Under the pieces are notes generated by a model. That model worked only from the letters and a program-made list of their open reading frames with translations, made no database searches and was not told the origin of the DNA. From a plasmid, in sequence record NZ_KX443406.1: DNA of 64,000 bases. One strand, written 5' to 3'. Both the position numbers and the translations under genes were made by a program. Numbering within the stretch: the stretch's first letter is position 1; every line of letters starts with the position of its first letter. Shown piece by piece: positions 4,907 through 53,441 of this stretch.

Positions 4907-6063
4907 TTGCGGTCCTCCACTGTCGCGATCTTCATTCCGCCGTCACCGGGTGCCGTGGTGATCCACTGCCGGTGAATGCCTTCGCTGCCAACGGGCGGGA
5001 TCCTCAGCAGCACGTCGACTGACCAGCGGTTCGGGTCCGGGGTCGGGAGCACGGTCACGCAGTGGTCGGTGCCGACGGGGACGGCGTCGATGAACGACTG
5101 GACCTCCGCTACCGGGGACGGCATCACCATCAGTGACGCGACGGCGTCTCCACTGCGCTTGACGTAGTAGGCGTGCTCGAACGCCTGGATGACGGCCGGA
5201 CCGGAGTCGCGTCCACCAGCGCCGTTGCCGACGATGCGGTCCGGCTCGTTGACTGTCTCGCACCAGGCCGGGGCTGCGGCCGTTGTTTCCGCGGACGTTT
5301 CCGCTGACGACGTCGACTCAGGCAGGGGCGGCACCGGGGTCTCACCGCTGTCGCCGGTGAAGGCGAGGACCGCGCCGGCGGTGACTACCGAAAGCGCCGC
5401 CACACCTGCGCCGACCAGCATGAAGGTCTTGCCGCCCGAACGCCCTCCCCCACCGTCGCCGTCACCGGCAACGGCCACAGGTTCGGTCGGATCCGCGGGC
5501 GGAACGTCGGCTGCGGGCAGCGCCGTCGCCGCTGCGGGCCTCTGGACACGCAGTCGGCCGACGACGGACTTGAAGCCGCCACGCGTGCGTTCGATGGCGA
5601 CGAGGGGCTCGCGGGGAATGTGGGCGCGCACCCAGTCCGGTGCGTCGGCGTAGGGGTCGAGGGGTAGCAGTTCGTGCTCGTCGACGAAAGCGCCGTCCGA
5701 GTATGCCTGGGGCGAAGCCGATTCGGGGGCCCACTCGCTGTACGCCTGGGGCGCGACTGCGGCGAACTGCTCCGTCTCGGCGTCAGCGGCCGCCGTGGGC
5801 GCGTCGATCGGCTGGAGGTCGGTCTGGATGATCGACTCCGTGTCGATCGGTTCAAGGTCTGTCTGCACGACCGAGTCCTGCTCGACGTCGAGCGGCTCGA
5901 GGTCATGCTCGAAGACGGCGGCGTCCGCCTCTGCGAACGTCTCCGCCGGGATGGGGAAGTCCAGTCCGTCCGAGACTGGGGTGTCGTCGGCTGGGGTCTG
6001 GTCGGTCCCGTAGTGCTCGATCACGTCGGGGAACAGCTGCTGCTCCCGATTGTCCGTCGACAT
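4903..6063 (-). CDS. Bitopic membrane protein: highly acidic ~200-aa N-terminal region, one TM, C-terminal domain with 2 Cys
   Basis: D/E-rich N-terminus, TM FMLVGAGVAALSVVTAGAVLAF, then a C-terminal domain containing AWCETV...DHCVTV. Confidence 0.45.
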   Translation of the reverse strand: MSTDNREQQLFPDVIEHYGTDQTPADDTPVSDGLDFPIPAETFAEADAAVFEHDLEPLDVEQDSVVQTDLEPIDTESIIQTDLQPIDAPTAAADAETEQFAAVAPQAYSEWAPESASPQAYSDGAFVDEHELLPLDPYADAPDWVRAHIPREPLVAIERTRGGFKSVVGRLRVQRPAAATALPAADVPPADPTEPVAVAGDGDGGGGRSGGKTFMLVGAGVAALSVVTAGAVLAFTGDSGETPVPPLPESTSSAETSAETTAAAPAWCETVNEPDRIVGNGAGGRDSGPAVIQAFEHAYYVKRSGDAVASLMVMPSPVAEVQSFIDAVPVGTDHCVTVLPTPDPNRWSVDVLLRIPPVGSEGIHRQWITTAPGDGGMKIATVEDRK

Positions 6064-14893: not shown

Positions 14894-15537
14894 AACCGTC
14901 GTCAGGTCCTCTTCGCGCAGAGCCGTTCGGCACTCAGCGATCGCGTCGCAGCACTCCGTGTCGTCGAGGACGCCCTCGACCGCGTCCACTCCGTTGCCGA
15001 GGAGCTGAGAACTGTCCAGCGCCTCTCCGCCGACACACACCTCGCCGAACAGCTCCACCAGCAGATGGCAGGCGCGGAGCTCGCGGCCGCCGATGCGCGC
15101 ACCGCCGGCGAACAGCTCGAAGAGGTCGAACAGAACCTTCGAGCGCAGGTGGACTACCTCGACACCCTCGTCTCGCGAACGCCGCGCCCCTGAGACCCGT
15201 AGAACGGCAAGAAGAAAGCCCCAGCCAGGGGGGATCGGCTGAGGCTTTCGTGCGAGTCCGCAGGACTCACTGGCTGAATCGGGGGGGATTCAAACTGCCG
15301 CCCGCAGTCTACCGTCACCACCCGACAAGACCGAGGCGCGTGACCAAGATCGCCAACCCGATGCCACGCGTTCGAACGACAGTGCTGCCGCGGCACCGCT
15401 ACGCGCCGCCTTGCCATCTATCACTCCCTGGTCACCAGAGCGCGGAGGCCGCGACGGCGCAGTGCCGGCGGGTAGAGTCACCTCGATCAATCCGCTGGGG
15501 CAGCCAGGCCCAAGCACGAACCCGGAAGGGAACTTTC

Positions 15538-15909
15538 ATGGCCGACACGGACCGCCGCTCCGGCGCAGAACTGCGCGCTCGACGGGAGCTGCTCGGCCTC
15601 AACGCGCAGGAGACCGCCGCACTACTCGGTGTCGACGAACGCGTGATCCGAAGATGGGAACAAGGCAAGCCCATCCCCGAAGGAGTCGTCGCCGAACTCG
15701 CGCAACTCGAACAGGTCCAGGACGACGTGATCCGGGAACTCGAAGACGCCGGCAAAGACAGTGGCGTCATCACCACCTACAAGGGCGACGGCGTCGTACC
15801 CGACCGCCCCGAACTGCCTGCCCGCTGGCACCGCGTCGCGGCCGCAACCGCGGTCCGCAACCTCGCAGCCGAGGGAGTCGACACCCGAATCATCTACGCC
15901 GAAAGCTGA
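15538..15909 (+). CDS. XRE-type HTH protein (123 aa)
   Basis: LGLNAQETAALLGVDERVIRRWEQGK. ATG 15538 lies in frame within the spurious long ORF 14650..15909. Confidence 0.55.
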   Translation: MADTDRRSGAELRARRELLGLNAQETAALLGVDERVIRRWEQGKPIPEGVVAELAQLEQVQDDVIRELEDAGKDSGVITTYKGDGVVPDRPELPARWHRVAAATAVRNLAAEGVDTRIIYAES

Positions 15910-15953
15910 CTACCAGGCGATACGTGCGGATCCGGTCCGTTCTGGCATTGTGC

Positions 15954-15987
15954 CGTTACAACGATTGAACGGCTAAACGTTGTAACG
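15954..15987. promoter_or_regulatory. Perfect inverted repeat CGTTACAACG-N14-CGTTGTAACG abutting a TAGAAT -10 box; candidate operator of the same repeat family
   Basis: Reads ccgttacaacgattgaacggctaaacgttgtaacg immediately 5' of tagaat (15988-15993). Confidence 0.45.
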
Positions 15988-16050
15988 TAGAATGGTTGTA
16001 GCGAGCAGGGCATCAGGCCCAGCTCACGATCCCCGGGAAGGGGACTCCTC
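15988..16050 (+). promoter_or_regulatory. Conserved leader copy 1: -10 TAGAAT, 5'UTR hairpin GGGCATCAGGCCC(AGC) at 16008-16023, SD GGGAAGGGGA, ATG 16051
   Basis: Same module found at 19234-19291 and 24617-24657. Confidence 0.5.
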
Positions 16051-16242
16051 ATGCACGACTATGTCGTGGCGATCAGCCATCGCGACGGTGACCACGTCGG
16101 CTCCGTCAAAGTCTCAGCAGCGTCAGCGCCCGATGCGGCGGACGCCGGAATCTTGACCATGCTCGACGGGCGGCCGTTGCCGTCGAGCGACTACCGGGCG
16201 ATCGCCGTTCCGCTGCGCCAGCTCGCACCGGCCTCCCACTGA
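16051..16242 (+). CDS. Small hypothetical protein (63 aa)
   Basis: ATG is 27 nt after the conserved leader hairpin, with a strong SD. Confidence 0.45.
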   Translation: MHDYVVAISHRDGDHVGSVKVSAASAPDAADAGILTMLDGRPLPSSDYRAIAVPLRQLAPASH

Positions 16243-16319
16243 CCTTCGGATCGGCGGGGCGCCCGACGGCAAGCCCCGCCGATCCCTCTCCTTGACCAGC
16301 CCTGGAAAGGGACACGGCA

Positions 16320-17318
16320 ATGAATCTTGCAATCGAATCATCCGGCACCCCAACGGACGAGCTGTTCAACAACCTCTCGAACATCCTCAGCACCGTCGCG
16401 TGGGCCGGCATGGCTCTCGGGGTCATCATCATGGTCGTCAGCATGGGTCGGTTGGCTTTCGCCTACGACTCCTACGCCTGGTCCAGTGCCCTTCGCGGAA
16501 TCATCGGGGGAGTGGGAGCCATCGTCGGCTTCGGACTCGCCGCACTACTCGGTGCGGCCGGCTCCGCCTCCGACGCTCCCGCCGAGCCAGCAGAATCAGA
16601 ACCGTCCCCGGCTCCGCAGCCGGTTCCGATCCCGACCCCGGCCCCTGATCCGACCCCGACTGACGTCGGCGACTCCACCCCCGCTGGTTTCGACATCAAT
16701 CCCATGATCCTGCTCGCTGCCTTCGGCGCGATCGGGTTCGTCGTCGTCACCTGGTTCGCCGTGTCCAACTTGCGAGCCCGCCGCGCCGAGCGCCGCGAGG
16801 AGCGAGAAGCCCGCGAGCGCGACTGGGCGACCGGTCAGGCCGTGTACAAGGGCGTCCTCGACGACTACAGCGCCTATCTGCTCGATCCCTTCGCGTGGCT
16901 CCAACGGCCCATCCTCGAAGACGTCGACGAGCCGCTGACGGCCGCGTTCCTCGAAGCGCTCGCCCACGCCCAGGCGCTCGACCTCGACGTCGTCCCCGCC
17001 GACCAGAACCGAATCGACCAGTTCCGCACCGCGGCCCACGAACTCCGGGCAGCCTGGGACAAGGCCGACGAGAACGCCCGCCGCATCGGCACCAGCATCT
17101 ACGAGCGGTCCAGCCGCAACAAGCTCCGCAAGGCCGCCTACGCGCTCCGCACCGCACTCGACACCTCCGCCACCGCAGCAGAGCGTCAAGCCGCCACCGA
17201 GACCGTCAAGCGACTGACAGACGGCCTGGTCAAAGCGCCCGAACGCGTCCTCAGTGCCGTCACCGCGGCCATCGACACAGCACGTCGCAAGGAACTCCCT
17301 GTCGGACTCAACCAGTAG
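16320..17318 (+). CDS. Membrane protein (3 TM N-terminal, Pro-rich linker, alpha-helical C-terminal domain)
   Basis: TM segments VAWAGMALGVIIMVVSMG, GIIGGVGAIVGFGLAALLGAAG, PMILLAAFGAIGFVVVTWFAV. Confidence 0.5.
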   Translation: MNLAIESSGTPTDELFNNLSNILSTVAWAGMALGVIIMVVSMGRLAFAYDSYAWSSALRGIIGGVGAIVGFGLAALLGAAGSASDAPAEPAESEPSPAPQPVPIPTPAPDPTPTDVGDSTPAGFDINPMILLAAFGAIGFVVVTWFAVSNLRARRAERREEREARERDWATGQAVYKGVLDDYSAYLLDPFAWLQRPILEDVDEPLTAAFLEALAHAQALDLDVVPADQNRIDQFRTAAHELRAAWDKADENARRIGTSIYERSSRNKLRKAAYALRTALDTSATAAERQAATETVKRLTDGLVKAPERVLSAVTAAIDTARRKELPVGLNQ

Positions 17319-17357
17319 CTTGTAGACCGAGCCCCCACCAGACGCAGAACGGACTCC

Positions 17358-17669
17358 ATGGATCAGATGAACGCATTCACATGGATCGGCCTCGCCCTCC
17401 TCATCGTCGGCGGCGGCATCGTGATCTGGGTGTCGCCGATGGTGCTCGCCCTACAAGCCAAGGGGCTTCCCGGAGGGAAGTACCGCACCCGGCACGGCAT
17501 CGGGCTCGGGCTCGCCGCATTTGGCGCCATCCTGATGAACATCGGCACGCTGAGCTCGAGCGCCGGCGTCGCGATGAAGATCGCCGCCCTCGCGGCCGCA
17601 GTGATCCTGCTGGGAACACTGGTATGGGCCACTGTGCGGATGCGCGACCAGAGCGGAGCAGCTGAGTAA
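17358..17669 (+). CDS. Small membrane protein (103 aa, 3 TM)
   Basis: Hydrophobic throughout. Followed by a terminator hairpin. Confidence 0.5.
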   Translation: MDQMNAFTWIGLALLIVGGGIVIWVSPMVLALQAKGLPGGKYRTRHGIGLGLAAFGAILMNIGTLSSSAGVAMKIAALAAAVILLGTLVWATVRMRDQSGAAE

Positions 17670-17683
17670 CCACCGGGACCGAC

Positions 17684-17714
17684 AAGAAGGCGGGGCACAT
17701 GCCCCGCCTTCTTT
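17684..17714. terminator. Bidirectional intrinsic terminator hairpin AAGAAGGCGGGGCACATGCCCCGCCTTCTTT
   Basis: Perfect 13-bp GC-rich inverted repeat between convergent genes, followed by TTTGTGT. Confidence 0.5.
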
Positions 17715-17734
17715 GTGTCTATATGGCTCCCGAT

Positions 17735-18310
17735 CTACTCCGGTGCGGGCGGCGGGGGCCCGATCACGGGGGGAGGGGGAGCCTTCGGCAGCGGCGGCAG
17801 CGGTTTGCCTCCCAGATATTCCAGGGCGTTTCGAACCAGTCCGGGTTCGGCCTCTGCGACGACGCGGCGGCGCTCCTTGATTCGCCGCCAGGTGCGTATG
17901 CGTCCGATCCTTGGGTGCCAGACCACGCTTTGAAGGTCCCACGCGGCCTCGCGCGATAACCGGGTTAGCTCCGGACCAATTTTGCCTGCGTCGTAGTCGA
18001 GAGGTTGATCTTCCGCATCTTGCAGGCTCTTCCACCACGCTACATATGCGAGCAGTTTGTAGTGCTCGACAACGTTTCTCGGGGTTGCGGCAACGATCGC
18101 CGCCTTCTCCAACTCAGCGATCGCCTGCTGAAAGGGCGGGGCGTCCGGGAGGTCGCTGGGGCCGGCCCACCGAGCGGCCTCGCAGTCGGCCAATCGACGC
18201 AGGACCTCGCTGCGCACCTGCCGTCGCCCTTGGGCGCCGATCAAATACTGACCGACGAATGACCCGATACCGAGCGCGCCAAGGATGGATGCGAAAGCGG
18301 AGAGGTCCAC
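17735..18310 (-). CDS. Hypothetical protein with N-terminal TM and Pro-rich C-terminus
   Basis: MDLSAFASILGALGIGSFVGQYLIGA...PPLPKAPPPPVIGPPPPAPE. Confidence 0.4.
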   Translation of the reverse strand: MDLSAFASILGALGIGSFVGQYLIGAQGRRQVRSEVLRRLADCEAARWAGPSDLPDAPPFQQAIAELEKAAIVAATPRNVVEHYKLLAYVAWWKSLQDAEDQPLDYDAGKIGPELTRLSREAAWDLQSVVWHPRIGRIRTWRRIKERRRVVAEAEPGLVRNALEYLGGKPLPPLPKAPPPPVIGPPPPAPE

Positions 18311-18354
18311 CAGCGCAGACTAGCCCGCGCCGCGGCACAACTAGTGTCCTCGAG

Positions 18355-19005
18355 ATGACGACAGGTCGAGATGAAGGATCACGCTCGAAGTGGACGCGCG
18401 GTACTCGAATGTGGGGGGCCGCGACTGTCTTCGCGGTACTCGTCCTTTGGGGAGGCACGCAGCTGGCCATTGCACGGGGGCAAGATGTGGCCTGGTACAC
18501 GGGATTCGGCCAGTGGCTCGGTGCGCTGGGTAGCCTGATCGCAGCCGCCGTAGCGTTGGGAATCGCCACCACGGACCGGCGCCAGGCCGCGAAGCTGCGG
18601 ACGGCTGAGCAAGACGACCGCGACGCAGACCTAGCCCGCGAAGCAGGGCTGGTACGGATTCAAATCGAACACGTGCAGGATGGTGTTCCGCCGATGCCCG
18701 TGAAGGCCATCACCGTGAGGAACTGGAGGCAGTCCCGACTGTTCGAAGTGGAACTGGTGAGGATCGCGGTGACCAGCGCGCAAACGAAGGCTGAGATCGG
18801 AAGTGTCCGGATGCACTTCCCCAACGGTCGGAGCTGGGGGGTAAACAAGCATGACGTGAAGCTGACACCGATCGACCACGGGATGACTTTGTGGGTCTTC
18901 CCAATGAACGGTGCTGTGCCGAAATACGGGGCGCTCCAATACACCGATGAAGCCGGGCGGCGGTGGGAGGTCGACACCAAGGGGATCATCGCGCGGAAGC
19001 TGTAG
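18355..19005 (+). CDS. Hypothetical membrane protein (2 TM + C-terminal domain)
   Basis: Trimmed from spurious ORF 17911..19005 to ATG 18355. TM WGAATVFAVLVLWGG and WLGALGSLIAAAVALGIA. Confidence 0.4.
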   Translation: MTTGRDEGSRSKWTRGTRMWGAATVFAVLVLWGGTQLAIARGQDVAWYTGFGQWLGALGSLIAAAVALGIATTDRRQAAKLRTAEQDDRDADLAREAGLVRIQIEHVQDGVPPMPVKAITVRNWRQSRLFEVELVRIAVTSAQTKAEIGSVRMHFPNGRSWGVNKHDVKLTPIDHGMTLWVFPMNGAVPKYGALQYTDEAGRRWEVDTKGIIARKL

Positions 19006-19233
19006 GGACTGAGGTTCCTGCCCCGCCGGGTCGTCATTATCGCGGCGGCTCGTCGCTGCGTACCCCTGGCCCGCTCCGCTCTACCAGGGGCAATGCCTAC
19101 CTGCGGCAGGTACTGCACTCCTCGTCCACCGCACCATTCGTCTCTTGCCGGCGGGGCCGGGGAACGGTTGAAACAACACCGAAAAACAGGCCGCCATCAG
19201 GCATTACGTATTGCAAACAGCTATATTGTTGGA

Positions 19234-19291
19234 TAGAATGAGAGGGCGGTAGGGCATCAGGCCCAGCCGCCGACACCCGGGAGGGAAACTC
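19234..19291 (+). promoter_or_regulatory. Conserved leader copy 2: TAGAAT (19234-19239), hairpin GGGCATCAGGCCCAGC (19252-19267), SD GGGAGGGAAA, ATG 19292
   Basis: Spacing of -10, hairpin and ATG is near-identical to copy 1. Confidence 0.5.
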
Positions 19292-19585
19292 ATGGACACC
19301 GATCTGATCGAGCAGACCGTCATCGTCACCGCAACCATCGCCCAGGAGGCGGACGGCCACACCAACACGGTCGACCTCGAGGCGCACCTGGACGGCGCAG
19401 GCTGCGTCCTCCCGCCCGTCTGGGCGCAGAGTCTCGTTGCCGCGCAGGCCGACCCGGGGGAGTGGAGCACTGACATCGCCGACCGGGTCCTCGCGGGCCA
19501 CGGATACCGCCGCACCGACGAGTGGCTCGATGACGACAGCGGATGCTGGACCGCGACCGTCGAGCACATCGCCAGCGCATCCTGA
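19292..19585 (+). CDS. Small acidic hypothetical protein (97 aa)
   Basis: Downstream of conserved leader copy 2. Confidence 0.45.
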   Translation: MDTDLIEQTVIVTATIAQEADGHTNTVDLEAHLDGAGCVLPPVWAQSLVAAQADPGEWSTDIADRVLAGHGYRRTDEWLDDDSGCWTATVEHIASAS

Positions 19586-19658
19586 CACCATCGGATACCG
19601 GCAGCAGTTGGGCCGGGCCACTGGGTTCCGGCCCAACGCATACGAGGGGGAGAGCCAC

Positions 19659-20228
19659 ATGCAGGACGTCGAGCACGACGAGACGAACGCGTTCGTCGAC
19701 GAGCCGACCGACGACCCGGGCAGCGAGTACACCGAGCCCGAACTCGACCCCAAGGCTCACATGCTCTGCGCCGCCGTGTGGACCCGAGACGACACCACCT
19801 TGAGGTTCGTCGTCGAGCGGATGACCGAGGCCGACTTCGCGAACCCCTTCCACCGCCCTGTTTTCGCGGCGATCCGGGATGCGGTGCTGGCCGGCCACCC
19901 GCACGACCCGGCTAGCGTCAGCATGGCGCTCGGTCGCGCAGGCAGCCAGGCCGTACCGGCCGCCGTCCACAACCACTTCCGCGCGGCGCTCACCCTGGGG
20001 TCGTCCGCGGGCGCGCTGCGCTACTACGCCGCTGACGTCGTCGCTGTTGCGTACCGACGGAGCTTCCATGAGCTGGCGGCCACGATGGCGCACGCGGCAG
20101 CCGGGGCCGCGGAAGATCAACTGTTCCCGATCCTGGTCGACCTGGGCACCCGGCAGCGCAGCGAGATGAATCGACTCCGGTCCCTCCGCGACGACCCACT
20201 GCCCACGACGGCGACCGACCAGGCGTGA
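19659..20228 (+). CDS. DnaB helicase N-terminal-domain-only protein (189 aa)
   Basis: HMLCAAVWTRDDTTLRFVVERMTEADFANPFHRPVFAAIRDAVLAGHPHDPASVSMALGR...GALRYYAADVVAVAYRRSFHEL matches the DnaB N-terminal domain pattern. SD GAGGGGGAGAG. Confidence 0.5.
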   Translation: MQDVEHDETNAFVDEPTDDPGSEYTEPELDPKAHMLCAAVWTRDDTTLRFVVERMTEADFANPFHRPVFAAIRDAVLAGHPHDPASVSMALGRAGSQAVPAAVHNHFRAALTLGSSAGALRYYAADVVAVAYRRSFHELAATMAHAAAGAAEDQLFPILVDLGTRQRSEMNRLRSLRDDPLPTTATDQA

Positions 20229-20274
20229 CGCGGGGTCCAGGCTGCAATATTCCCGTTCGCAATAGGATGGGCGC

Positions 20275-20859
20275 ATGATGATCGGATACGCGCGGGCCGA
20301 GGAAGGCCACGACGAGGACCAGCAACGCTCGTCGCTCGTCGCGCTGGGAGTCCAGCCCGATCACATCCATATCGACCGCGGTCTACGCGGGACCAGGAAC
20401 GACCTGCCCGCCCGCACGGCCATGCTCGCACGCCTCACCGCCGGCGACGTCATCGCGGTCACCGGACTCGAGCGACTGGCCCGCTCCGCTGCCGAGCTGG
20501 GCGAAGTCGCTGGCGTGATCGAGCAGCGCGGCGCATCACTTCGCGTCGGATCGACCGTTTACGACCCGGACACCGAGACCGGCCGCACCGCGTTCGCCAT
20601 GCTCACCCAGACCTTCCCCGACTTCCAAGCCGGAATCTTCCAACTTCGGCTGTCCGGGCCGCGCGCGAAAGCCAAAGCTGCAGGACGGTATCCGGGCGGC
20701 AAGGCGAAGCTCACACCAGAGCAGAGCCGTGCAATGTTCGAGCAGTACCAGTCCGGCGAGAAGACAGTCGCCGACCTGCAGAAGGAACACGGGCTGAGCA
20801 AGTCCGGTGTGTACGTGTACCTGCGGCAGGAACGCGACGCCCGCAACAACACTGCCTAG
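20275..20859 (+). CDS. Serine-recombinase (resolvase/invertase) family protein with Glu at the expected catalytic Ser position; C-terminal HTH
   Basis: MMIGYARAEEG...DQQRSSL...GDVIAVTGLERLARS matches the resolvase N-terminal fold, but YARVS(T) reads YARAE(E). C-terminal TVADLQKEHGLSKSGVYVYL HTH. Confidence 0.55.
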   Translation: MMIGYARAEEGHDEDQQRSSLVALGVQPDHIHIDRGLRGTRNDLPARTAMLARLTAGDVIAVTGLERLARSAAELGEVAGVIEQRGASLRVGSTVYDPDTETGRTAFAMLTQTFPDFQAGIFQLRLSGPRAKAKAAGRYPGGKAKLTPEQSRAMFEQYQSGEKTVADLQKEHGLSKSGVYVYLRQERDARNNTA

Positions 20860-21042
20860 ACCACGCAATCGGAATTGCCCTCGCTCCTGCCGATACCTGT
20901 TCGGGCCGCACCTCGACTGAGCCGGAGATTGCCGCTGGGTATCAAAGGAGACGAACGTGCCCTACCCCCAGTGGGTGGTGGCGGACGATGGACTCGCCCC
21001 CGACGCAAACCCAGGCAGAGCACGCCCACTGAGGAGGCTGCG

Positions 21043-21126
21043 ATGTTCGATCTTCCGTTCTGGGGGCCGCTCACGCCCGTGGTGATCGCAGTGGCCAACG
21101 CGCTCGACTGGCTGGGGGTGTGGTGA
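21043..21126 (+). CDS. Tiny ORF 1 of array (27 aa, MFDLPFWGPLTPVVIAVANALDWLGVW)
   Basis: SD GAGGAGG is 5 nt upstream. Hydrophobic and aromatic-rich. Confidence 0.3.
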   Translation: MFDLPFWGPLTPVVIAVANALDWLGVW

Positions 21127-21212
21127 TGGCACCGCTCGGCGGCGTCCTCGTCCCGGAGTGGCTGTACGACGTGCTCTACCAACTCTGGCTATGGGGCATT
21201 CCGCCGCACTAG
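21126..21212 (+). CDS. Tiny ORF 2 of array (28 aa, MAPLGGVLVPEWLYDVLYQLWLWGIPPH)
   Basis: ATG overlaps the stop of ORF 1 (TGATG). Trp/Tyr-rich. Confidence 0.3.
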   Translation: MAPLGGVLVPEWLYDVLYQLWLWGIPPH

Positions 21213-21226
21213 CAGGAGAGAAGCTC

Positions 21227-21331
21227 ATGGGTGACACGTTCTGGTTTCTGCCGTTGCCATTCGAGACGCTCCGATGGCTGGCTGCGACGTACCCATGCCT
21301 GGTCGACTTCCGCCAGGCGTGTGGGCGATAA
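21227..21331 (+). CDS. Tiny ORF 3 of array (34 aa, MGDTFWFLPLPFETLRWLAATYPCLVDFRQACGR)
   Basis: SD AGGAGAG is 6 nt upstream. Confidence 0.3.
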   Translation: MGDTFWFLPLPFETLRWLAATYPCLVDFRQACGR

Positions 21332-21341
21332 GGAGACGGTC

Positions 21342-21449
21342 ATGCTCGACTACGGATTCTTCGGCCGCACCCTCGGCCCTCTCGGCGAGGCGATGGACAT
21401 TGTCATCTACTGGATCGCCACAGGCGTGCGGCTGATGCCGCACGCATAG
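21342..21449 (+). CDS. Tiny ORF 4 of array (35 aa, MLDYGFFGRTLGPLGEAMDIVIYWIATGVRLMPHA)
   Basis: SD AAGGAGA is 6 nt upstream. Confidence 0.3.
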   Translation: MLDYGFFGRTLGPLGEAMDIVIYWIATGVRLMPHA

Positions 21450-21793
21450 CGCGCGAATCACCGAGGCCCTTCTCGACAATTTCCCCGGGGTGCGTTGCAC
21501 CGTTGTGCGCCTGTGGCGCACCCCGAAACGAGCTCCGCTGCGCTCCGCCCCTGGAAAAGACTTCTTCCTTTTTCCCTTCTGGCTTCCGATTTTGACCGGC
21601 GGTGACCTCCGCGCAACCCCTTGGCGCTGCGCGGCCTGACGGCTCCGAAAATTCTCTCCCCCGCTGCGCTCCTCCAAGATTTTTCGACCCCAGGGGTTGC
21701 ACTCCGGCCCCCTCATACCGGTCCAAATACTCCATGCCAGAAGGGCAAAAGAACGGGCGGGGGAGAGACCCGTCCCCGAGTGAGGAGGGCGTC

Positions 21794-21877
21794 ATGCGTC
21801 GCGTTGAGGCGGAAGTCGATTCGAAGGACGAGATCGCCGAGATCGTCGAGTTGCTCGACGGAAACCCCTGGAACTAG
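21794..21877 (+). CDS. Tiny acidic ORF (27 aa, MRRVEAEVDSKDEIAEIVELLDGNPWN)
   Basis: SD GAGGAGGG upstream. Followed by a hairpin at 21899-21929. Confidence 0.3.
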   Translation: MRRVEAEVDSKDEIAEIVELLDGNPWN

Positions 21878-21898
21878 ATCAGCGCCCGAGAAATGAGT

Positions 21899-21929
21899 GA
21901 GTCGGGACAGAAGGTAGCTGCCCCGACTC
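21899..21929. terminator. Hairpin GAGTCGGG-N15-CCCCGACTC
   Basis: Inverted repeat between the tiny ORF and the SD (AGGAGAGAGG) of the ParB-like gene. Confidence 0.3.
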
Positions 21930-21959
21930 GCTCTCCCGAACTGTAGGAGAGAGGCCATC

Positions 21960-23510
21960 ATGACCGCAACGACCACCCCCGAACTGCTCACCGTCGATCC
22001 CGCCACCCTCGAGATCGGTGACAACGTCCGCGACGAGGTCGACCTCGACGCGACACCCGAGTTCGTCGAGTCCATCGCAGAACACGGTGTGCTGCACCCG
22101 ATCCTGGCAGAGCGCCGGAATGACGGCACCATCTTGGTCACCGATGGCCAGCGCCGACTTCTCGCCGCCCGCGTCGCGAACCGGACCAGCGTGCCCGTCA
22201 TCATCCGGCCCCAGGGGAATGGAACCGACAACGCTCGCAAGGCCGCTCGCATCGGCCAGCAGATCGTCTCCAATGACCAGCGCGAAGCCCTCACCGATGG
22301 CCAGCGCGCCGCCGGCATCGCCGCCATGCTCGACCTGGTCCTGTCCCAGACCGCCGTCGCCAAGGCAGCCAGCGTCTCCCGCGACAGGGTCAAGACCCTC
22401 GCGACGGTCGGCGCATCGAAGGCCGCTCGCGCCAGCGTGGACGAGCATCAGTTCACCATCGAACAGGCCGCGACCATCGCCGAGTTCGAGGAAGCCGGCG
22501 ACACCGAGGGCATCAACCGCCTGCTCTCCTCTGGCAGCCACTACCAGTTCGACTACATGGCCGAGCGTCTGCGTTGTGACCGGGCGGAACGCATCGCACA
22601 CGCCGAGGCAGCCGCGCCGTACGAGGCCAAGGGCTTCACCATCCTCGACGGCTACAACTACCACCCGGTCACGTTCGAGCACGTCCTCACCGAGACCGGC
22701 GAACCGATCACCCTCGAGACGGTCGAAGCTGACGCCTCCCGCTGGGGCGTCCGGCTGAGCTGGACCGAGGCGTGGTTCGACCGCCAGAGCGGGGCAGAGG
22801 TCGCCGAGGACGAAATCGACTGGGACACCCACGAGAACCCCGACCTCGAAGCCGAGGACGGCCTGATCCACATGAACAACATCGAGACCCGCCGCGTGTG
22901 GGACCGCGAGTTCCACCTGCTCGACCCCGGCAACCTCGAGGGCAGCGGCCTCCAGCTGAGCGATGTCGCCAAGGTCATGGTCGCGCGCAGGACCGGACGC
23001 GCTGCCGCAGTGCCGGCGACCGCCGAAGAAGCAGCCGCCCAGATCGAGGCGGAGCGCGAGGAACGCCGCCGCGTCCGAGAGCTGAATAAGCGCGCCGAGG
23101 CGGCGAACACCGTCCGACGCACCTTCCTGCGTACCCTGCTCGGACGCACCAAGCTCCCCGCGAACGCCTCCGTGTGGATCGCGGTCACCCTCGCGAGCGA
23201 TCCTCACCTGCTGGCCGAGTACCACGCGAGCGACTGCTTCGGAGAGCTACTCGGGATCAAGGACTACCGACTCTCGAACAACGCCGTCCGGGACCTGGCC
23301 GTCGCAGCCAGCGACGCCCGCGCCCAGGTCATCACCTTCGCCCTGGTGATCGCCGCGATGGAGGCCCGCATGGTCAAGGACGCCTGGCGGACCCGGCCCC
23401 GAGGCGCAACCGCCTACCTCGAACTCCTCGCCGCGAACGGCTACGAACTGTCGGACGTCGAGAAGGCGATCGCCGCGCACATCAAGCCCGAGACCATCAG
23501 CCTCGACTAG
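21960..23510 (+). CDS. ParB/Srx N-terminal-domain protein (516 aa)
   Basis: GVLHPILAERRNDGTILVTDGQRRLLAARVANRTSVPVII matches the ParB N-terminal (nuclease/CTPase-fold) motif region. Long acidic middle. C-terminal helical domain. Confidence 0.6.
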   Translation: MTATTTPELLTVDPATLEIGDNVRDEVDLDATPEFVESIAEHGVLHPILAERRNDGTILVTDGQRRLLAARVANRTSVPVIIRPQGNGTDNARKAARIGQQIVSNDQREALTDGQRAAGIAAMLDLVLSQTAVAKAASVSRDRVKTLATVGASKAARASVDEHQFTIEQAATIAEFEEAGDTEGINRLLSSGSHYQFDYMAERLRCDRAERIAHAEAAAPYEAKGFTILDGYNYHPVTFEHVLTETGEPITLETVEADASRWGVRLSWTEAWFDRQSGAEVAEDEIDWDTHENPDLEAEDGLIHMNNIETRRVWDREFHLLDPGNLEGSGLQLSDVAKVMVARRTGRAAAVPATAEEAAAQIEAEREERRRVRELNKRAEAANTVRRTFLRTLLGRTKLPANASVWIAVTLASDPHLLAEYHASDCFGELLGIKDYRLSNNAVRDLAVAASDARAQVITFALVIAAMEARMVKDAWRTRPRGATAYLELLAANGYELSDVEKAIAAHIKPETISLD

Positions 23511-23526
23511 ACCCGCACGCGAAGGA

Positions 23527-23550
23527 GGCCCGCACCGCACGGTGCGGGCC
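23527..23550. terminator. Hairpin GGCCCGCACCGCACGGTGCGGGCC
   Basis: 9-bp GC stem 3' of the ParB-like gene. Confidence 0.4.
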
Positions 23551-23592
23551 TTCGCCCCGTCTGCTGCACACTTGAACGAACGAGGAGGGGAC

Positions 23593-23832
23593 ATGACCGG
23601 CGAGCAGCACTTCGATCAGGATCCAGGCCCAGACGCCTGGGCCGACGACACGCTCGGCGCAGCCGAAGCGATGAGTGACGACGAGCTCGACGCAGCAATC
23701 GACGCCCTGGCCGCTCGCGAGCGACGGTGCCTCATCAGGGGGAACGTCGAGTACGCCAAGTCCCTCGCGCACGACAAGTGGGTCTGCATCACCGTTCGGA
23801 CGAACAGAAACCGGCCGTGGCCTGGTAGTTGA
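23593..23832 (+). CDS. Small acidic hypothetical protein (79 aa)
   Basis: SD GGAGGGG + ATG 23593. Confidence 0.35.
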   Translation: MTGEQHFDQDPGPDAWADDTLGAAEAMSDDELDAAIDALAARERRCLIRGNVEYAKSLAHDKWVCITVRTNRNRPWPGS

Positions 23833-23926
23833 CGTTCCGAACCGGCCTTCGCGCCAGCGCGGACCGCCCCACCGGAATCCCTATTTTGTAGTACACAAAT
23901 AGCCAATTTTGTAGTACAGTATTAGC

Positions 23927-24193
23927 ATGGCAATCAAGTGGACCGGCAGCGCCGACAAGCATGGAATCGACCATGCCGACGCGACCCATGCAATCGCGCA
24001 CGCGATGTACGTCGAGGAGGAGTTCGATGATCCTCGACCGCCGTCGACGATTCGGCCCACCCTGTTCATTGGTCCGCCGCGAAAGCTGGGCGGCCCCTTG
24101 CTCGAAGTGATGGTGGAGATCGGCCCTCGCGACATCACGGTCTTTCACGTGATGGAGGCCCGCCAGAAGCATCTCGACCGGATGGAGGACTGA
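23927..24193 (+). CDS. brnT: BrnT-like (RelE-superfamily) toxin
   Basis: 88 aa. AIKWTGSADKHGIDHADATHAIAHAM...RPTLFIGPPRKLGGPLLEVMVEIGPRDITVFHVMEARQKHLDRM fits the BrnT pattern (W..K.KH...E...R..G...L.VV...I.SAR.A). The stop overlaps the start of the next gene. Confidence 0.5.
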   Translation: MAIKWTGSADKHGIDHADATHAIAHAMYVEEEFDDPRPPSTIRPTLFIGPPRKLGGPLLEVMVEIGPRDITVFHVMEARQKHLDRMED

Positions 24194-24558
24194 TGACGAC
24201 CATGAAGACGGGGGTGGCGGCACAGATGGAGGAAGCCATGACCAGCAAGAAGAAGAGCTACGACGAGGCAGCCGACTGGGCCGAACACGAGATGACCCTG
24301 CCGGAGAACTCGAAGACGGCCCGCAGGGGAGCCGCCGCCGCCGAGGCGGGGCGAGCGCTCCTCGCGCGCGCCCATGCCGGGCGGCCGAGTCTGGATCCGC
24401 AGGCCAAGCCGGGGGAGGAATCTCCCCGGCGACAGGTGCGACTGCCCCTCGCGGTGAGCGAGCAGGTGGACGCGCTGGCGGCCGCCCAGGGTCGGCGCGC
24501 CGCCGAGGTCATGCGCGACGCGATCACGATGTACGTCAACGAGCACGCAAGCCGCTGA
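24193..24558 (+). CDS. brnA: BrnA-like antitoxin (C-terminal RHH)
   Basis: ATGA overlap with brnT. C-terminal RQVRLPLAVSEQVDALAAAQGRRAAEVMRDAITMYV RHH motif. Confidence 0.5.
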   Translation: MTTMKTGVAAQMEEAMTSKKKSYDEAADWAEHEMTLPENSKTARRGAAAAEAGRALLARAHAGRPSLDPQAKPGEESPRRQVRLPLAVSEQVDALAAAQGRRAAEVMRDAITMYVNEHASR

Positions 24559-24616
24559 CGTGCCGTCCCGTCGGCGCGACGCCAGCGCCGGCGGGTAACG
24601 GAGCTTGAACAGGGCA

Positions 24617-24657
24617 GGGCATCAGGCCCAGCCCATCCGCCCAGGGAAGGGAACCTC
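24617..24657 (+). promoter_or_regulatory. Conserved leader copy 3: hairpin GGGCATCAGGCCCAGC (24617-24632), SD GGGAAGGGAA, ATG 24658
   Basis: Third copy. The downstream ORF runs antisense into the SRAP remnant, so its gene is doubtful. Confidence 0.4.
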
Positions 24658-25129
24658 ATGGAACCGATGAGCACCGCACTGCTGCCGGACTCTGCACGCG
24701 TGCCGGCGCCCGAATCGATCCGTGCCGCGCTGCAACGGCCGACTATGGCGGACGGTGTTGACCGCGGTGCTCACTTCGTAGGGCTGCAGATGCGGTTCGG
24801 GGATGGAGTTCACCATCGCCTGCACTTCGTCGCGGTCGGTGATCGAGGGGTCGAGCCAGTGCTCCCAGAACGACGCGGGCAGGATGACAGGGGAGCGGTC
24901 ATGGATGTGTCCGGTCGCGTCCGTCGCCTGTGTGGTGAGCACGGTGGTGGTCCACAGCCAGCCGACCCGGGTCGTCCTCGGTCTTGGACGGGTCCGGCCA
25001 CAGCTCGTAGAGGCCGGCCATCGCGAGGACCGGGTCGTCGCCGTGGAGGAGGTACGGATTTCCTCCGTACCTTTTATCCATGGACCTGATTCCTGAGGCG
25101 TAGTCACTCCCGTCGCGCCCACCGCACAA
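24622..25129 (-). pseudogene. SOS-response-associated peptidase (SRAP/YedK family) remnant with internal deletion and frameshift
   Basis: N-terminal frame: MCGG...SGIRSMDKRYGGNPYLLHGDDPVLAMAGLYELWPDP. A second frame carries WLWTTTVLTTQATDATGHIHDRSPVILPASFWEHWLDP...PYEVSTAVN. About 90 aa between the catalytic Cys2 and the GFYEW-like block are missing. Confidence 0.5.
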
Positions 25130-25622
25130 TCATCGGGATCCCCAATAACCCCGCGCCGATCTCGGCGACCGCGAGATTCGCAGCCGGTGAGGTGGAGGTT
25201 GCCGGTGTATGGGGTGGTATCCCACGCCGACGTGCGGCCCCGCCGCTGAAGGTCTTCCACGGGCCGCTCATCTACTCCGCGTATGCCCGCGTCTGGTGAC
25301 GATCCAACAAAACCAGAGCCGATCGCAATACGCTTCACAGGATGAAGTCCACTTGGCTTCTCAAGGAGAGCCGACACAGGCGGCGAACGGTGAGCCTACG
25401 GCCCTCCTACTGGCAGTTCGGGCCGTATCGGGCCCGTCCACTCATCAGACTTTTCAGGCGGGGATGGTCAGGCCATGCGAACTAAGGTATCCGTCTACCT
25501 ATCTAAACTTCAACTGAGGTCTTTGGCTTCATAACACTTGGCGCTCCTGCGTCGCATCGGTTGGAGTCAGCGCGTCGGGTTCCTGTATAAAGGGGAAAAT
25601 GCTTACCCGAGGGAGGTGTAGA

Positions 25623-46155: not shown

Positions 46156-47063
46156 GCATGGACGAGCCAGAGGACCTGACCCATCTGGTCGACAGTGCAC
46201 GGAGCGTCGCGCGGCTGCCTGCGGCCGAACGGATCCGGCACATCCGCGCCGACCGGTGGATCGGCTACCCACGTGCGATGCAAGCTATCGAGCGCCTCGA
46301 AACCCTCTACACCTGGCCACAGCGGCAGCGGATGCCGAACCTGCTGCTGGTTGGGCCGACGAACAACGGCAAGTCGATGATCATCGAGAAGTTCCGGCGC
46401 CGGCACGCCCCGGTCGCCGCCGACGACCACGAGACGATCCCGGTGCTGTGCGTGCAGATACCCTCAGACCCGTCGGTGTCCCGGTTCTACGTCGCCCTAC
46501 ACGCTGCCCTCGGGGCCCCGATCCGGCCCGGGCGACGGGTCGCGGAACTCGAGCAGCTCACGCTGAGGCTGTTGCGGGCCACCGGGGTCCGAATGCTGGT
46601 GATCGACGAACTACACAACGTGCTCGCCGGCCGCGACAGCGCGCGCCGCGAATTCCTGAACGTGCTGCGCTATCTCGGCAATGAGCTGCAGATCCCGCTG
46701 GTCGGCGTCGGCACCCGGGAGGCGTATCTGGCGATCCGCAGCGACGACCAGCTCGAGAACCGGTTCGCCCCGATGGTGTTGCCGCCGTGGGAAGCCGGGG
46801 ACGACACCCGGTCCCTGCTGGCCAGCTTTGCTGCCTCGTTCCCGCTGCGGCGGCCCTCCCACCTGGCCGGAGAAGACATGGCCGGCTATCTCCTTGCCCG
46901 CAGCGAGGGCACGATCGGGGAACTGGCGCTGTTGCTGACCGAGGCTGCGGTGGCCGCGGTCGAATCCGGCGAGGAGGCAATCAACCGGCGCACTCTGACG
47001 ATGGCCGGCTACACCGGCCCCACCGAACGGCGCCGCCAGTTCGAACGCGAGATCGCCGGGTGA
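46149..47063 (+). CDS. tniB: TniB/TnsC-like AAA+ ATPase
   Basis: Walker A GPTNNGKS and Walker B LVIDELH. Start overlaps the tniA stop (ATGGTGA); alternative ATG at 46158. Confidence 0.75.
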   Translation: MVSMDEPEDLTHLVDSARSVARLPAAERIRHIRADRWIGYPRAMQAIERLETLYTWPQRQRMPNLLLVGPTNNGKSMIIEKFRRRHAPVAADDHETIPVLCVQIPSDPSVSRFYVALHAALGAPIRPGRRVAELEQLTLRLLRATGVRMLVIDELHNVLAGRDSARREFLNVLRYLGNELQIPLVGVGTREAYLAIRSDDQLENRFAPMVLPPWEAGDDTRSLLASFAASFPLRRPSHLAGEDMAGYLLARSEGTIGELALLLTEAAVAAVESGEEAINRRTLTMAGYTGPTERRRQFEREIAG

Positions 47064-48289
47064 GACCGGTCCTCCGGTGGCCGATCCACCCGCCGCCACG
47101 GCACGGGGAGAGCCTGTCGTCGTGGCTGTACCGGATCGCCGCTGTCTACCAGCTCACCGTGGGTGAGCTGCTCGAACACGACCTCGGCCACCCACCGGTC
47201 GATGCAGATGTGCTCGACCTGGAGCCAGCCGCGGGCCTGCTTGCCGACCTTTCTCGCCGCAGCGGCTTTGACCATGACCGGCTGCATCGGATGAGCGTAT
47301 CCGGGCACGTTCCGTGGTTGCTGGACTCACTCGACCCGAACGCCAACGACTTCGACACCTACATACGACAGTTGTCGATCCTGATGCCAACACATCGTCG
47401 CGGCCGCGGCGGCCGGCGACGTCCCGGGCCCGGGTGGCGGCCCTGGCTGCCTACCGAGTCCGGCGTGCGGCGAGCCTGTCCACAGTGTGCTGACGACTCC
47501 CATCATCAGCGCTGGATACTCGCGGCCCGTCTACCACTGCAAGTCAGCTGCCCTACACACCGCTGCCTCTTCGAACCCTGTTTCGGGTACCCAGATCATC
47601 TTTACTGGGATACCGACGAGCCGCTGCCCCGACCTGTCCCCCCTGCGGTGGTCACCCTCGACCGCTACACCGACCAAGCGTTGACGTCCGGCGTGGTGGC
47701 GTTACCCCGCCGAACCATCCACAGCGGGATGTGGTTTCGGCTGCTCCGCACGCTGATCGACGAGTTGTGCGCACCGATTCACCGCGCGGGCCCGGCGGTC
47801 CAGCAGGTGTGGGCTCGCCGCGGCGGGCGGCCACCGCAGCTGATCTGTCGGCCCTTCGAAGCACTGCCCTGGCCCGCACAGTCCGAACTCCTCACCGTCG
47901 CCGCAGACACCATCGCCCTGCTGGGGGCGGGCGAGATCATCCCGGACGGGGGCGACGGACACCTGTTTACCCCCGATCGCGTCGGCGATGACTTCCCGTC
48001 CGGACGGGCCCGCCGGAACCAGCACCCCGATCCGAACCACGCTCTGGCACGTCGCATCGACGTCGACCGCGATCGACGTCGAACCGCCCGCGCGCGGATG
48101 GACTCCGCGCTCGGCGACGCGATCGACGAAGCCCGCCGCGACCCGCAGGCTGCCCGCTCCCTGTTCTCCCTCATGCGGCACGGCTGCCGCACCGACCGGG
48201 AGATCGAACGACTGCTGGCCGTTTTCGACGAACTCGAAATCCCCACCAGCGGTTTTCGAGACGACCTGCCACCCGATCCCTATCTCTGA
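47060..48289 (+). CDS. tniQ: TniQ-family protein
   Basis: GTGA overlap with tniB. N-terminal PRHGESLSSWLYRIAAVYQLTVGEL resembles the TniQ N-terminal domain. CxxC pair CPQC...CPTHRC. Confidence 0.55.
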   Translation: MRPVLRWPIHPPPRHGESLSSWLYRIAAVYQLTVGELLEHDLGHPPVDADVLDLEPAAGLLADLSRRSGFDHDRLHRMSVSGHVPWLLDSLDPNANDFDTYIRQLSILMPTHRRGRGGRRRPGPGWRPWLPTESGVRRACPQCADDSHHQRWILAARLPLQVSCPTHRCLFEPCFGYPDHLYWDTDEPLPRPVPPAVVTLDRYTDQALTSGVVALPRRTIHSGMWFRLLRTLIDELCAPIHRAGPAVQQVWARRGGRPPQLICRPFEALPWPAQSELLTVAADTIALLGAGEIIPDGGDGHLFTPDRVGDDFPSGRARRNQHPDPNHALARRIDVDRDRRRTARARMDSALGDAIDEARRDPQAARSLFSLMRHGCRTDREIERLLAVFDELEIPTSGFRDDLPPDPYL

Positions 48290-48582
48290 CCGGCGGCTAC
48301 GACCTAGCCTGCATCGGCTTTGACGAGACCCGCACTGGCCGCCGCGGACCAGCGCACACTGAGTTCGCGAGCCGGAACTCGGGACGCGGTACCAGTCACT
48401 CGTAGGTTTGTGTGGGTGCGCGTCGATAAGTGTAGTTATCGCACCGAGTGGCAACAATTTGCCTGCTCCAGGCGTCTTCTGATGAATCTCGGTTCGTCCA
48501 GGTCTCCCTTGGCAGCTACGCATGAACCGGCGGGTGACCTTGCCCCGAATCTGCAGCCCGCACTGTCCCGAATGAGCACCGT

Positions 48583-50394: not shown

Positions 50395-50544
50395 GTCGCT
50401 TCTTGTGGGCCGATGAACGCAGCAAGGACTCCTGGGGTCCGGCAGCGTCCTCGGCGTCCCGGACCCGCTTTCACCACGGTATCCGGTCGTCGTCCGACAT
50501 CTGGGCGCATGGCCCGCGGCCGTCGCCGGTGGAGCCGAGGCGGC

Positions 50545-53411: not shown

Positions 53412-53441
53412 TGGCCACCGCAGCGCGATGCCGGTGATCGC

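Follow-up and report, generated by a model that had tools for sequence, protein, structure and literature searches.

How does one short sequence come to stand in front of several unrelated genes on a virulence plasmid, and what does it do there? The question is raised by a plasmid-derived stretch of DNA of 64,000 nt (NZ_KX443406.1; hereafter the window), in which a 16-nt sequence, GGGCATCAGGCCCAGC, recurs upstream of small genes. Positions 1-44347 of the window were 99.9% identical to the Prescottella (Rhodococcus) equi virulence plasmid pVAPB1593 (NC_011150.1), and the leader copies containing the 16-mer belong to the backbone of this plasmid, on the upstream side of its vap pathogenicity island. 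We found the 16-mer to be the core of a leader of two hairpins that is also carried by a linked gene for an Aca2/DUF1870 family helix-turn-helix (HTH) protein, and we judge it on balance probable that the leader defines a plasmid-borne, multi-operon, Aca2-type post-transcriptional regulon.

A shared leader upstream of unrelated plasmid genes

Exactly three exact copies of the 16-mer were present in the window, all on the + strand (copies 1, 2 and 3 at 16008-16023, 19252-19267 and 24617-24632), as an initial annotation made from the sequence alone had reported, and an exact match arose in 0 of 100 dinucleotide-preserving shuffles. The distance from the 16-mer to the following ATG was 43, 40 and 41 nt (ATG at 16051, 19292 and 24658), and the purine-rich Shine-Dalgarno (SD) sequences described for the three copies were correct. 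The TAGAAT noted upstream of copies 1 and 2 was also present (15988-15993 and 19234-19239), at a measured spacing of 14 and 12 nt from the 16-mer, and forms part of a sigma-70-like promoter (TTGAAC/TTGCAA-17-TAGAAT); these two promoters represent two of the three such sites detected by promoter scan in 15000-25500 (10.5 kb; 0.9 expected). The 63-aa and 97-aa products encoded behind copies 1 and 2 showed no relatedness to each other, in line with the claim of unrelated downstream proteins. In a repeat search the unit extended over only ~50 nt with 68-78% identity and is therefore no part of a longer dispersed repeat or insertion sequence (IS), the origin against which the initial annotation had warned.

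Folding of the copies placed the 16-mer at the core of a hairpin of 23-25 nt, HP1, which consists of an outer stem of 3-5 bp, a 1x1 A.A or A.G internal loop, a 4-bp inner stem (GGGC/GCCC) and a loop of 4-6 nt that usually begins with A. The GGGC-N5-GCCC hairpin proposed at the outset is the inner stem of this longer hairpin, whose outer stem covaries; among the paralogous copies the outer stems differ yet remain complementary (GAGC/GCUC, GCGGU/GCCGC, GGGC/GCCC and UGGC/GCCA). After a linker of 5-8 nt follows a second hairpin, HP2, made of a YCCC 5' arm, a GGAA or GGGA loop and a GGGG(A) 3' arm, so that the SD purines form the loop and the 3' arm and are partly paired. The whole module usually begins with a sigma-A-type promoter (TTGnnn-17-TAGAAT/TAGAGT), which is followed by ~6-10 nt, HP1, the linker and HP2, with the start codon 5-10 nt further on, and transcription is predicted to start a few nt 5' of HP1.

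All copies in the window lie on the + strand. Copy 1 follows promoter 1 (TTGAAC-17-TAGAAT; 15965-15993) and comprises HP1 at 16003-16025 (GAGC-A-GGGC-AUCAG-GCCC-A-GCUC; covariance model 53.5 bits, E 1.8e-9) and HP2 with the SD at 16030-16044 (UCCCC-GGGAA-GGGGA) before the ATG at 16051. Copy 2 follows promoter 2 (TTGCAA-17-TAGAAT; 19211-19239), which holds a near-palindrome, ACAGCTATATTGT, in its spacer (homologous promoters of the metagenome contig L249 contain related ones), and has its HP1 at 19246-19270 (GCGGU-A-GGGC-AUCAG-GCCC-A-GCCGC; E 4.2e-8); its HP2/SD at 19276-19285 (CCC-GGGA-GGG, ATG 19292) is weak, and minimum-free-energy folds pair these bases otherwise. The HP1 of copy 3 lies at 24612-24634 (GGGC-A-GGGC-AUCAG-GCCC-A-GCCC; E 1.3e-7) and its HP2/SD at 24640-24651 (CCC-AGGGAA-GGG, ATG 24658). 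A scan for an SD block together with an HP1-type hairpin revealed a diverged copy 0 at 15491-15535, which carries CCCGGAAGGG before an ATG at 15538. Its HP1 was located at 15493-15516 ((C)GCU-G-GGGC-AGCCAG-GCCC-A-AGC(A); E 9.4e-6) and, in the minimum-free-energy fold, its HP2/SD at 15520-15532 (CCC-GGAA-GGG), and a -10-like box (TAGAGT, 15473-15478), in the GGTAGnnT form of the mycobacterial copies described below, marks a putative promoter. The topoisomerase gene of the plasmid, which is not part of the window, is preceded by copy 4, whose HP1 (UGGC-A-GGGC-ACCAG-GCCC-A-GCCA) has one mismatch to the 16-mer. There are therefore four copies in the window, of which copy 0 had escaped the initial annotation, and five on the plasmid. 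In the related plasmid pVAPA1037 copies 0-3 are present. Copies 2 and 3 of pVAPA and pVAPB differ by C-to-U changes that retain G.U pairs, and the 3' arm of HP1 in copy 2 of pVAPA, GUCGC, keeps its pairing in this way.

Conserved RNA structure of the leader

The pairing of HP1 was assessed in an alignment of 52 distinct rows made with a covariance model, fit to which favours the structure: in this alignment 93.9% of the HP1 cells were in standard pairs compared to 79.7 +/- 1.0 in shuffles (0 of 500 reached the observed value), 45 cells were changed on both sides compared to 11.1 in shuffles, and compensatory changes were found in six of the eight pairs. When the 3' partner was slid by 1-3 columns as a control only 26-59% were paired, and RNAalifold recovered HP1 independently with seven of the pairs. 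HP1 thus covaries, which the initial annotation had proposed to check. G.U and U.G pairs numbered 23 compared to a single A.C or C.A, and loop length ranged from 3 to 7 nt across the family; this bias and the variable loop spacing favour a hairpin in the sense-strand RNA over a symmetric double-stranded DNA operator. HP1 is a real conserved structure of the sense-strand RNA. Its unpaired bases were constrained as well, with a purine-purine internal loop (A.G in 31 copies, A.A in 12; A on the 5' side in 43 of 52) and a loop beginning with A in 41 of 52 copies, and this constraint suggests recognition by a specific partner.

HP2 was present, with the SD inside, in the minimum-free-energy fold of nearly all copies, and variants that preserve its pairing occurred (UUCCC/GGGGA, CUCCC/GGGAG, UCUCC/GGAGA, GUUUC/GGAAC, AGCCC/GGGCU and ACCC/GGGU). 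A first test of matched against swapped arms (0 of 5000) was rejected as biased, because the register had been picked to maximise pairing, and was replaced by a comparison with re-optimised chimeras, in which the mean stack of HP2 was 4.94 compared to 4.68 +/- 0.12 and 45 of 2000 chimeras reached the observed value. HP2 is plausible, with modest support. A search of 15900-24750 against Rfam at E up to 10 returned nothing relevant; its weak chance matches included SorX, on the opposite strand of copy 3.

A linked gene of the Aca2/DUF1870 family

Copy 0 leads a gene (15538-15909, + strand) for a protein of 123 aa, which we propose as the trans-acting regulator. The PGAP label of the product is DUF1870 family protein, and Pfam searches matched it to PF08965 (Aca2_YdiL; 24.3 bits against a cut-off of 23.8) and to HTH_31 (1.7e-8). 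An AlphaFold (AF2) model was obtained with a pLDDT of 85, and its top matches to the PDB in Foldseek were structures of phage ZF40 Aca2 (7VJP, 7B5J, 7VJO, 7VJQ and 7EZY; TM 0.62-0.70, with 116-121 columns aligned to the 123 residues of the model); next in rank were the DUF1870 structures 2OX6 and 1S4K (SO3848, YdiL). By predicted fold and profile match the protein is a member of the Aca2/DUF1870 family, its C-terminal dimerisation domain included.

The position of the leader before this gene is conserved. In pVAPB (15473-15538), pVAPA, Rhodococcus sp. SGAir0479 and R. marinonascens, the aca2-like gene has a -10-like box followed by both HP1 and HP2 ahead of its ATG. A leader also precedes the regulator gene in plasmids of Mycobacterium sp. 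JS623, M. aubagnense and M. intracellulare, and in a metagenome contig (L249) the aca2-like gene is preceded by HP1 only. The HP1 of the regulator gene covaries, reading GCC-A-GGGC-GCAG-GCCC-A-GGC in R. marinonascens and GCC-A-GGGA-ACCG-UCCC-A-GGC in contig L249. Mycobacterial plasmids encode a protein of 281 aa, the C-terminal half of which is homologous to the 123-aa protein (tblastn E 2.7e-8, and alignment). This longer protein was found in all five plasmids with BLAST matches to the module and in only 12 of 72,556 plasmid records overall.

Distribution in Rhodococcus and Mycobacterium plasmids

Copy 1, used as a BLAST query, led to a plasmid of Mycolicibacterium vanbaalenii, in which TAGGAT is followed by GGGC-A-GGUC-AUUCG-GACC-G-GCCC and CCCGGGAAGGGGA-N5-ATG, before a DUF4192 gene; the inner stem of this leader is altered on both sides relative to P. 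equi. The same architecture with other stem sequences was found on plasmids of M. vanbaalenii, M. adipatum, Mycobacterium sp. JS623 and M. intracellulare and in Rhodococcus contigs, with weaker leader matches in M. aubagnense and M. abscessus. The mycobacterial consensus reads TTGTCGGTGG-N5-6-GGTAGnnT-N8-10-GGGC-A-GGYC-ANNNG-GRNC-G-GCCC-N6-7-(U)UCCCGGAAGGGGA-N5-AUG/GUG. When 376 kb of plasmid DNA were searched with a covariance model built from 27 copies (R1), 60 matches reached E<1, and each of those inspected shared the strand of the gene that follows and lay directly 5' of its start codon. Twelve matches at E<0.01 fell within one 40-kb segment of pMYCSM03 of Mycobacterium sp. JS623, and R1 detected 15 further leaders in eight soil-metagenome contigs. 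No copy of the leader was found in the phage collections.

Several other matches were rejected. Scanning metagenomes with the mycobacterial pattern gave 42 loci, eight of which hold true leaders and about 30 of which are an unrelated GC-rich repeat of peat and bog metagenomes. This repeat, GGGCAGGCCGGCGGGACCGGCCCGCCCGGCCCGGGACCGCTCACCC, stands near many contig ends (L261-L301) and matches the search pattern by coincidence. With the GGGCAYCAGGCCCAGC pattern, searched in genome and viral contigs, all 12 of the matches listed that passed an SD-context screen were coding-like and without leader context. Within the window, a leader-like series of TAGAGT, G.A-mismatched hairpin, CCCCCGGAGGAG and ATG at 59270-59335, before a DUF1275 gene in chromosome-like DNA, was taken as a chance resemblance because the covariance model gives no match there, and weak model matches at 33115 and 36435, upstream of vapK copies (E 0.36), lacked HP1.

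Genes behind the leaders

Copy 1 leads an operon (16051-17669, + strand) for proteins of 63 aa (16051-16242), 332 aa (16320-17318) and 103 aa (17358-17669), for which no significant Pfam match and no PHROG family were found, the 332-aa protein having one sub-threshold TAN match. The operon behind copy 2 (19292-20859, + strand) encodes the 97-aa protein (19292-19585), a DnaB-N-like protein (19659-20228) and a resolvase-type recombinase (20275-20859), and copy 4 leads the gene for a TopA-like topoisomerase of 808 aa. The initial annotation was right that a shared cis-regulatory leader of promoter, 5' untranslated region (5'-UTR) hairpin and SD stands before unrelated genes of the plasmid backbone; its view that the module drives small genes holds in part, as multi-gene operons, the Aca2-like HTH gene and the topoisomerase gene are led by it as well. 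Directly upstream of copy 3 lies a ribbon-helix-helix (RHH) gene (24193-24558, + strand; Pfam RHH_1 3.4e-4). Neither the promoter scan nor the sequence gave a -10 box between 24558 and 24612, and copy 3 is probably read through from the operon of the RHH gene.

Two minor observations concern these operons. At the topoisomerase gene (NC_011150.1 22908-22965, minus strand) an in-frame ATG at 22965 sits 10 nt past the leader SD, and the true start is probably 19 codons upstream of the annotated GTG. A perfect long hairpin, UUGGGCCGG-(loop)-CCGGCCCAA, occupies 19603-19637, in the gap between the 97-aa gene, which stops at 19585, and the DnaB-like gene, which starts at 19659, and may be an intra-operon attenuator or processing site; the intergenic site before the DnaB-like gene in pVAPA1037 gave a weak covariance-model match (E 0.19).

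In mycobacterial plasmids the leader precedes genes for DUF4192, a methyltransferase of the 1,500-aa class, MoxR-AAA/VWA, DUF4262, MPTase-PolyVal, DUF3846, DUF3560 and a clamp-like protein, and it also adjoins PAPS reductase. These families are suggestive of early-entry or conflict gene sets. The leading-region, zygotic-induction or anti-restriction role with which the small genes had been associated at the outset is a plausible one for the leader genes, judged by analogy.

A proposed Aca2-type mechanism

According to Feussner et al. (NAR 2026, PMC13551039), who summarise Birkholz et al. (Nature 2024), Aca2 (HTH domain DUF1870) represses the acr-aca2 operon at an inverted repeat in the promoter and also binds two 5'-UTR hairpins, blocking the ribosome-binding site. 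The same paper describes two classes of Aca2 RNA motif ('actino-' and 'proteo-' motifs), up to three sites on neighbouring operons, motifs between genes within operons, and Aca-regulated genes that include PAPS reductases and helicases (PMC13551039). The P. equi system resembles this in several respects. Pfam and the full-length fold both place its regulator in the same family, the 5'-UTR carries a first hairpin and a second, modestly supported one at the ribosome-binding site, and the motif, borne on a mobile element, leads the regulator gene itself as well as neighbouring operons and sometimes lies between genes within an operon. The cargo consists mostly of small uncharacterised proteins and includes PAPS reductase in the mycobacterial plasmids, an enzyme that PMC13551039 reports as Aca-regulated. 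The analysis established the anatomy and conservation of the module, the covariation of HP1, its structure on the sense strand, the linkage to a regulator gene and the family of that regulator; by analogy with Aca2 we infer protein-RNA binding, translational repression and their timing.

In the proposed sequence of events the promoters would fire constitutively, for example right after plasmid entry, and the Aca2/DUF1870 HTH protein would be made from its gene (15538-15909), which bears the same leader. As it accumulates, an Aca2-like dimer would bind HP1 and HP2 on each mRNA and occlude the SD from the ribosome, and the protein may repress at the DNA level too. The outcome would be autoregulation and, once a first burst of expression has passed, joint repression of all leader-bearing units: the aca2-like gene, the topoisomerase gene, the operons that begin with the 63-aa gene and with the 97-aa gene (followed by the DnaB-like and resolvase genes), and, at the island junction, the gene that is now truncated. 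Copy 3 would work from a position within an operon, for which some Aca2 motifs provide a precedent. Where the initial annotation had left the choice between an RNA-stability and a regulatory element, the conserved RNA structure stands, and its role is narrowed by the linked Aca2/DUF1870 gene and the published Aca2 mechanism to probable translational repression at the ribosome-binding site.

As regards DNA-level control, a perfect 10-bp inverted repeat, CGTTACAACG-N14-CGTTGTAACG, was seen at 15954-15987 (+ strand) with the -35 hexamer of promoter 1 in its spacer and may serve as a DNA operator. Different palindromes (AGCTATATAGCT and CAATATTG) occupy the spacers of homologous promoters in contig L249. 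Because the spacer palindromes differ by promoter, individual promoters seem to own separate DNA operators besides the common RNA leader.

The system also departs from the Aca2 precedent. It is found on conjugative or large plasmids of Mycobacteriales and not in phages or prophages. P. equi has five copies and a single 40-kb plasmid segment holds at least 12, compared to 'up to three' in the published account. Its cargo contains no known acr gene; a topoisomerase gene and a DnaB-like/resolvase operon are part of it. In the mycobacterial plasmids the regulator has an N-terminal extension of roughly 150 aa, and no conserved promoter inverted repeat was found in the system.

Several points weigh against the proposed regulon. 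The sequence match of the regulator to Aca2 is marginal (24.3 against 23.8 bits; PDB phmmer E about 0.03), HP2 has just 3 bp in P. equi copies 0, 2 and 3 with modest covariation support, and no Rfam 15 family was matched at gathering thresholds in the whole window. No inverted-repeat DNA operator is common to all promoters compared, the repeat at 15954-15987 being absent at the other copies. In Pfam and PHROGs the P. equi cargo matched no known anti-defence family, and only topoisomerase, DnaB-N-like and resolvase proteins could be named. Since the leader precedes a dozen or more genes in mycobacterial plasmids, its place before the HTH gene is a weak specific linkage, and the co-occurrence of module and regulator could merely reflect a shared plasmid backbone. 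An identity of the leader with the published actino-motif is a lead and not a result.

Alternative explanations

A leader acting only in cis would require no dedicated protein: HP1 at the 5' end would shield the mRNA from RNase E/J decay, a strong SD with HP2 would fix the translation rate, and the cassette would have spread by duplication along with a good promoter. Stabilising 5'-terminal stem-loops such as those of ompA, ermC and aprE are well established, and HP1, which starts about 6-10 nt past the -10 box and so within a few nt of the predicted mRNA 5' end, shares this position with them and is followed by a strong and conserved SD block. Those stem-loops, however, serve single genes and have neither a conserved internal-loop or loop sequence nor a partner hairpin at the ribosome-binding site, and a generic stabiliser would need no conserved purine-purine mismatch (5'-side A in 43 of 52), fixed inner stem or A-first loop. 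HP2 pairs the SD, which would lower translation rather than raise it, copy 3 and several mycobacterial copies stand inside operons without a promoter and hence not at a 5' end, and a regulator of an RNA-binding family is encoded alongside. We therefore hold a purely cis-acting leader to be rather unlikely, while giving it more weight than the remaining alternatives.

It is improbable that HP1 is instead a double-stranded DNA operator for a plasmid repressor of the HTH, RHH or Lrp-like kind, with the RNA hairpin a mere by-product. The inverted repeat of HP1 does lie at about +3 to +27, a classic operator position, and genes for HTH and RHH repressors flank the copies. Plasmid regulons such as those of KorA/KorB (IncP) and ArdK (IncN) use a shared double-stranded DNA operator, and the system described here resembles them in having one plasmid repressor gene, a repeated cis element before several backbone operons and a presumed burst at entry followed by shut-down. 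Unlike in those regulons, however, the G.U bias, the covariation and the hairpin at the ribosome-binding site point to an RNA target: the ratio of G.U to A.C (23 to 1) is the asymmetry expected of sense-strand RNA, variable positions covary so that complementarity is kept, a loop of 3-7 nt leaves the half-site spacing unfixed, and copy 3 occurs without a promoter. Binding of promoter DNA by Aca2 itself (PMC13551039) also speaks for an operator. Slightly less credible still is recognition of the leader by another binder (the RHH protein, a host RNA-binding protein or RNase III), or an HP2 that acts as an RNA thermometer opening the SD at 37 C. P. equi vap gene expression depends on temperature and HP2 is a short G-C stem over the SD, but three to five G-C pairs are atypical of thermometers, and the same leader occurs in environmental Mycolicibacterium and in soil-metagenome plasmids. 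RHH-type Aca proteins such as Aca14 exist (PMC13551039), but nothing ties the RHH gene to copies other than copy 3. An origin as a chance repeat, an IS or MITE fragment or the terminator of an upstream gene can be practically dismissed. The sequence is GC-rich and a similar pattern matched the unrelated peat-metagenome repeat; the 16-mer, however, recurred in none of 100 shuffles, and the unit of ~50 nt is gene-oriented in the copies inspected, at a fixed distance directly before the start codon. HP1 is not followed by a U-rich stretch, the scan called none of the copies as terminator-like, and copies 1 and 2 have a promoter between the upstream stop codon and the hairpin.

Two further systems of repeated elements at gene starts invite comparison. 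The start-associated sequence (SAS) of phage genomes is a 13-bp element, GGGATAGGAGCCC, located 3-8 bp before start codons. Such SAS and extended SAS (ESAS) were reportedly described in Cluster K mycobacteriophages by Pope et al. in 2011. Like the leader, they place a conserved SD block near the starts of many unrelated genes of an actinobacterial mobile element, preceded in a subset by an imperfect inverted repeat. The sequences differ, however, and the leader is found on plasmids, with a hairpin supported by covariation and a candidate regulator; the SAS was present at none of the copies, and with up to two mismatches it had three matches elsewhere in the window compared to 2.1 expected. Frpo single-strand promoters of plasmid leading regions (Samuel et al., Nature 2024, as cited in PMC13551039) are likewise repeated structured elements before early or anti-defence genes of conjugative plasmids. 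They are long hairpins whose stem holds the -35 and -10, whereas the promoter hexamers described here (15965-15993 and 19211-19239) lie upstream of and outside the hairpin of 23-25 nt.

Were the Aca2-type regulon confirmed, a mechanism known from phage anti-CRISPR operons would extend to plasmid establishment, in a regulon far larger than the up to three reported Aca2 sites, and the backbones of pVAPA, pVAPB and large Mycobacterium plasmids would be run partly by an RNA-binding HTH repressor of the Aca2 type. More tentatively, the timing of gene expression on a conjugative or virulence plasmid could be set post-transcriptionally by one Aca2-family HTH protein as master regulator, which through the shared leader would control five operons in P. 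equi, the topoisomerase gene and a replication/recombination operon among them, and more than a dozen in some Mycobacterium plasmids, a bolder proposal on which we would put somewhat less than even weight. The small genes behind the leaders would then be marked as having early-entry, probably anti-defence, functions, the leader would serve as a simple handle for listing co-regulated early genes, and many small proteins would be nominated as candidate anti-defence or establishment factors.

Copy 3 and the vap pathogenicity island

The initial annotation had taken copy 3 to drive a gene of about 40 or more codons. The open reading frame (ORF) behind it (24658-25089) is, judging from the sequence comparison, not a real gene: no gene is annotated at 24658-24737, which is a remnant (+ strand) of the gene once led by copy 3, and this copy has no -10 box of its own. 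On the plasmid of Rhodococcus sp. SGAir0479 (CP039433.1), which is without the vap island, the same leader stands before an intact gene for 116 aa. The homology of pVAPB to CP039433.1 stops near 24737, about 80 nt into the ORF, and that to pVAPA stops near 24666, 9 nt into it. The gene is intact in SGAir0479 and the homology breaks fall inside the ORF, and it was therefore cut by the vap island or the variable region. The leader thus explains a detail of P. equi plasmid evolution, namely that the vap island was inserted a few codons into a leader-bearing gene.

The pVAPN plasmids have a different overall structure (~120 kb, circular according to the record) and share the PLSDB replicon cluster and the MOBF relaxase type of pVAPB. 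A degenerate copy of leader 3, GGGCAGCAGGTCCAGC-CCAGGGAAGG, lies just before lsr2 at the island edge of pVAPN1571 (L246, about 5041-5079), which suggests that the vap island moved together with a piece of a pVAPA/B-type junction.

Neighbouring features of the window

The match to pVAPB1593 ends at 44347, which corresponds to record position 76437 and lies near a recombinase gene, and 44348-64000 does not match that record. This part contains Tn7-like tniA/B/Q homologues, followed by chromosomal-looking genes for a thiolase, a DUF1275 protein and a GTP-dependent PEP carboxykinase. Such a junction would fit an integrated plasmid, another variant of the plasmid or a join made in assembly.

An intergenic segment of 276 bp is duplicated on the plasmid with 98.5% identity (window 21486-21761 and NC_011150.1 12073-12348), one copy being upstream of a small ORF that precedes parB and the other upstream of a DUF4192 gene. 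Each ends in its own GC-rich inverted-repeat-like sequence and an SD, forming a second shared promoter-leader cassette of a different type. Finally, two tandem AT-rich repeats of 23 nt, CCTATTTTGTAGTACACAAATAG and CCAATTTTGTAGTACAGTATTAG, were found at 23880-23925, directly 5' of an ORF of 88 aa (23927), where they overlap a promoter-like site of the minus strand and look like an operator or iteron.

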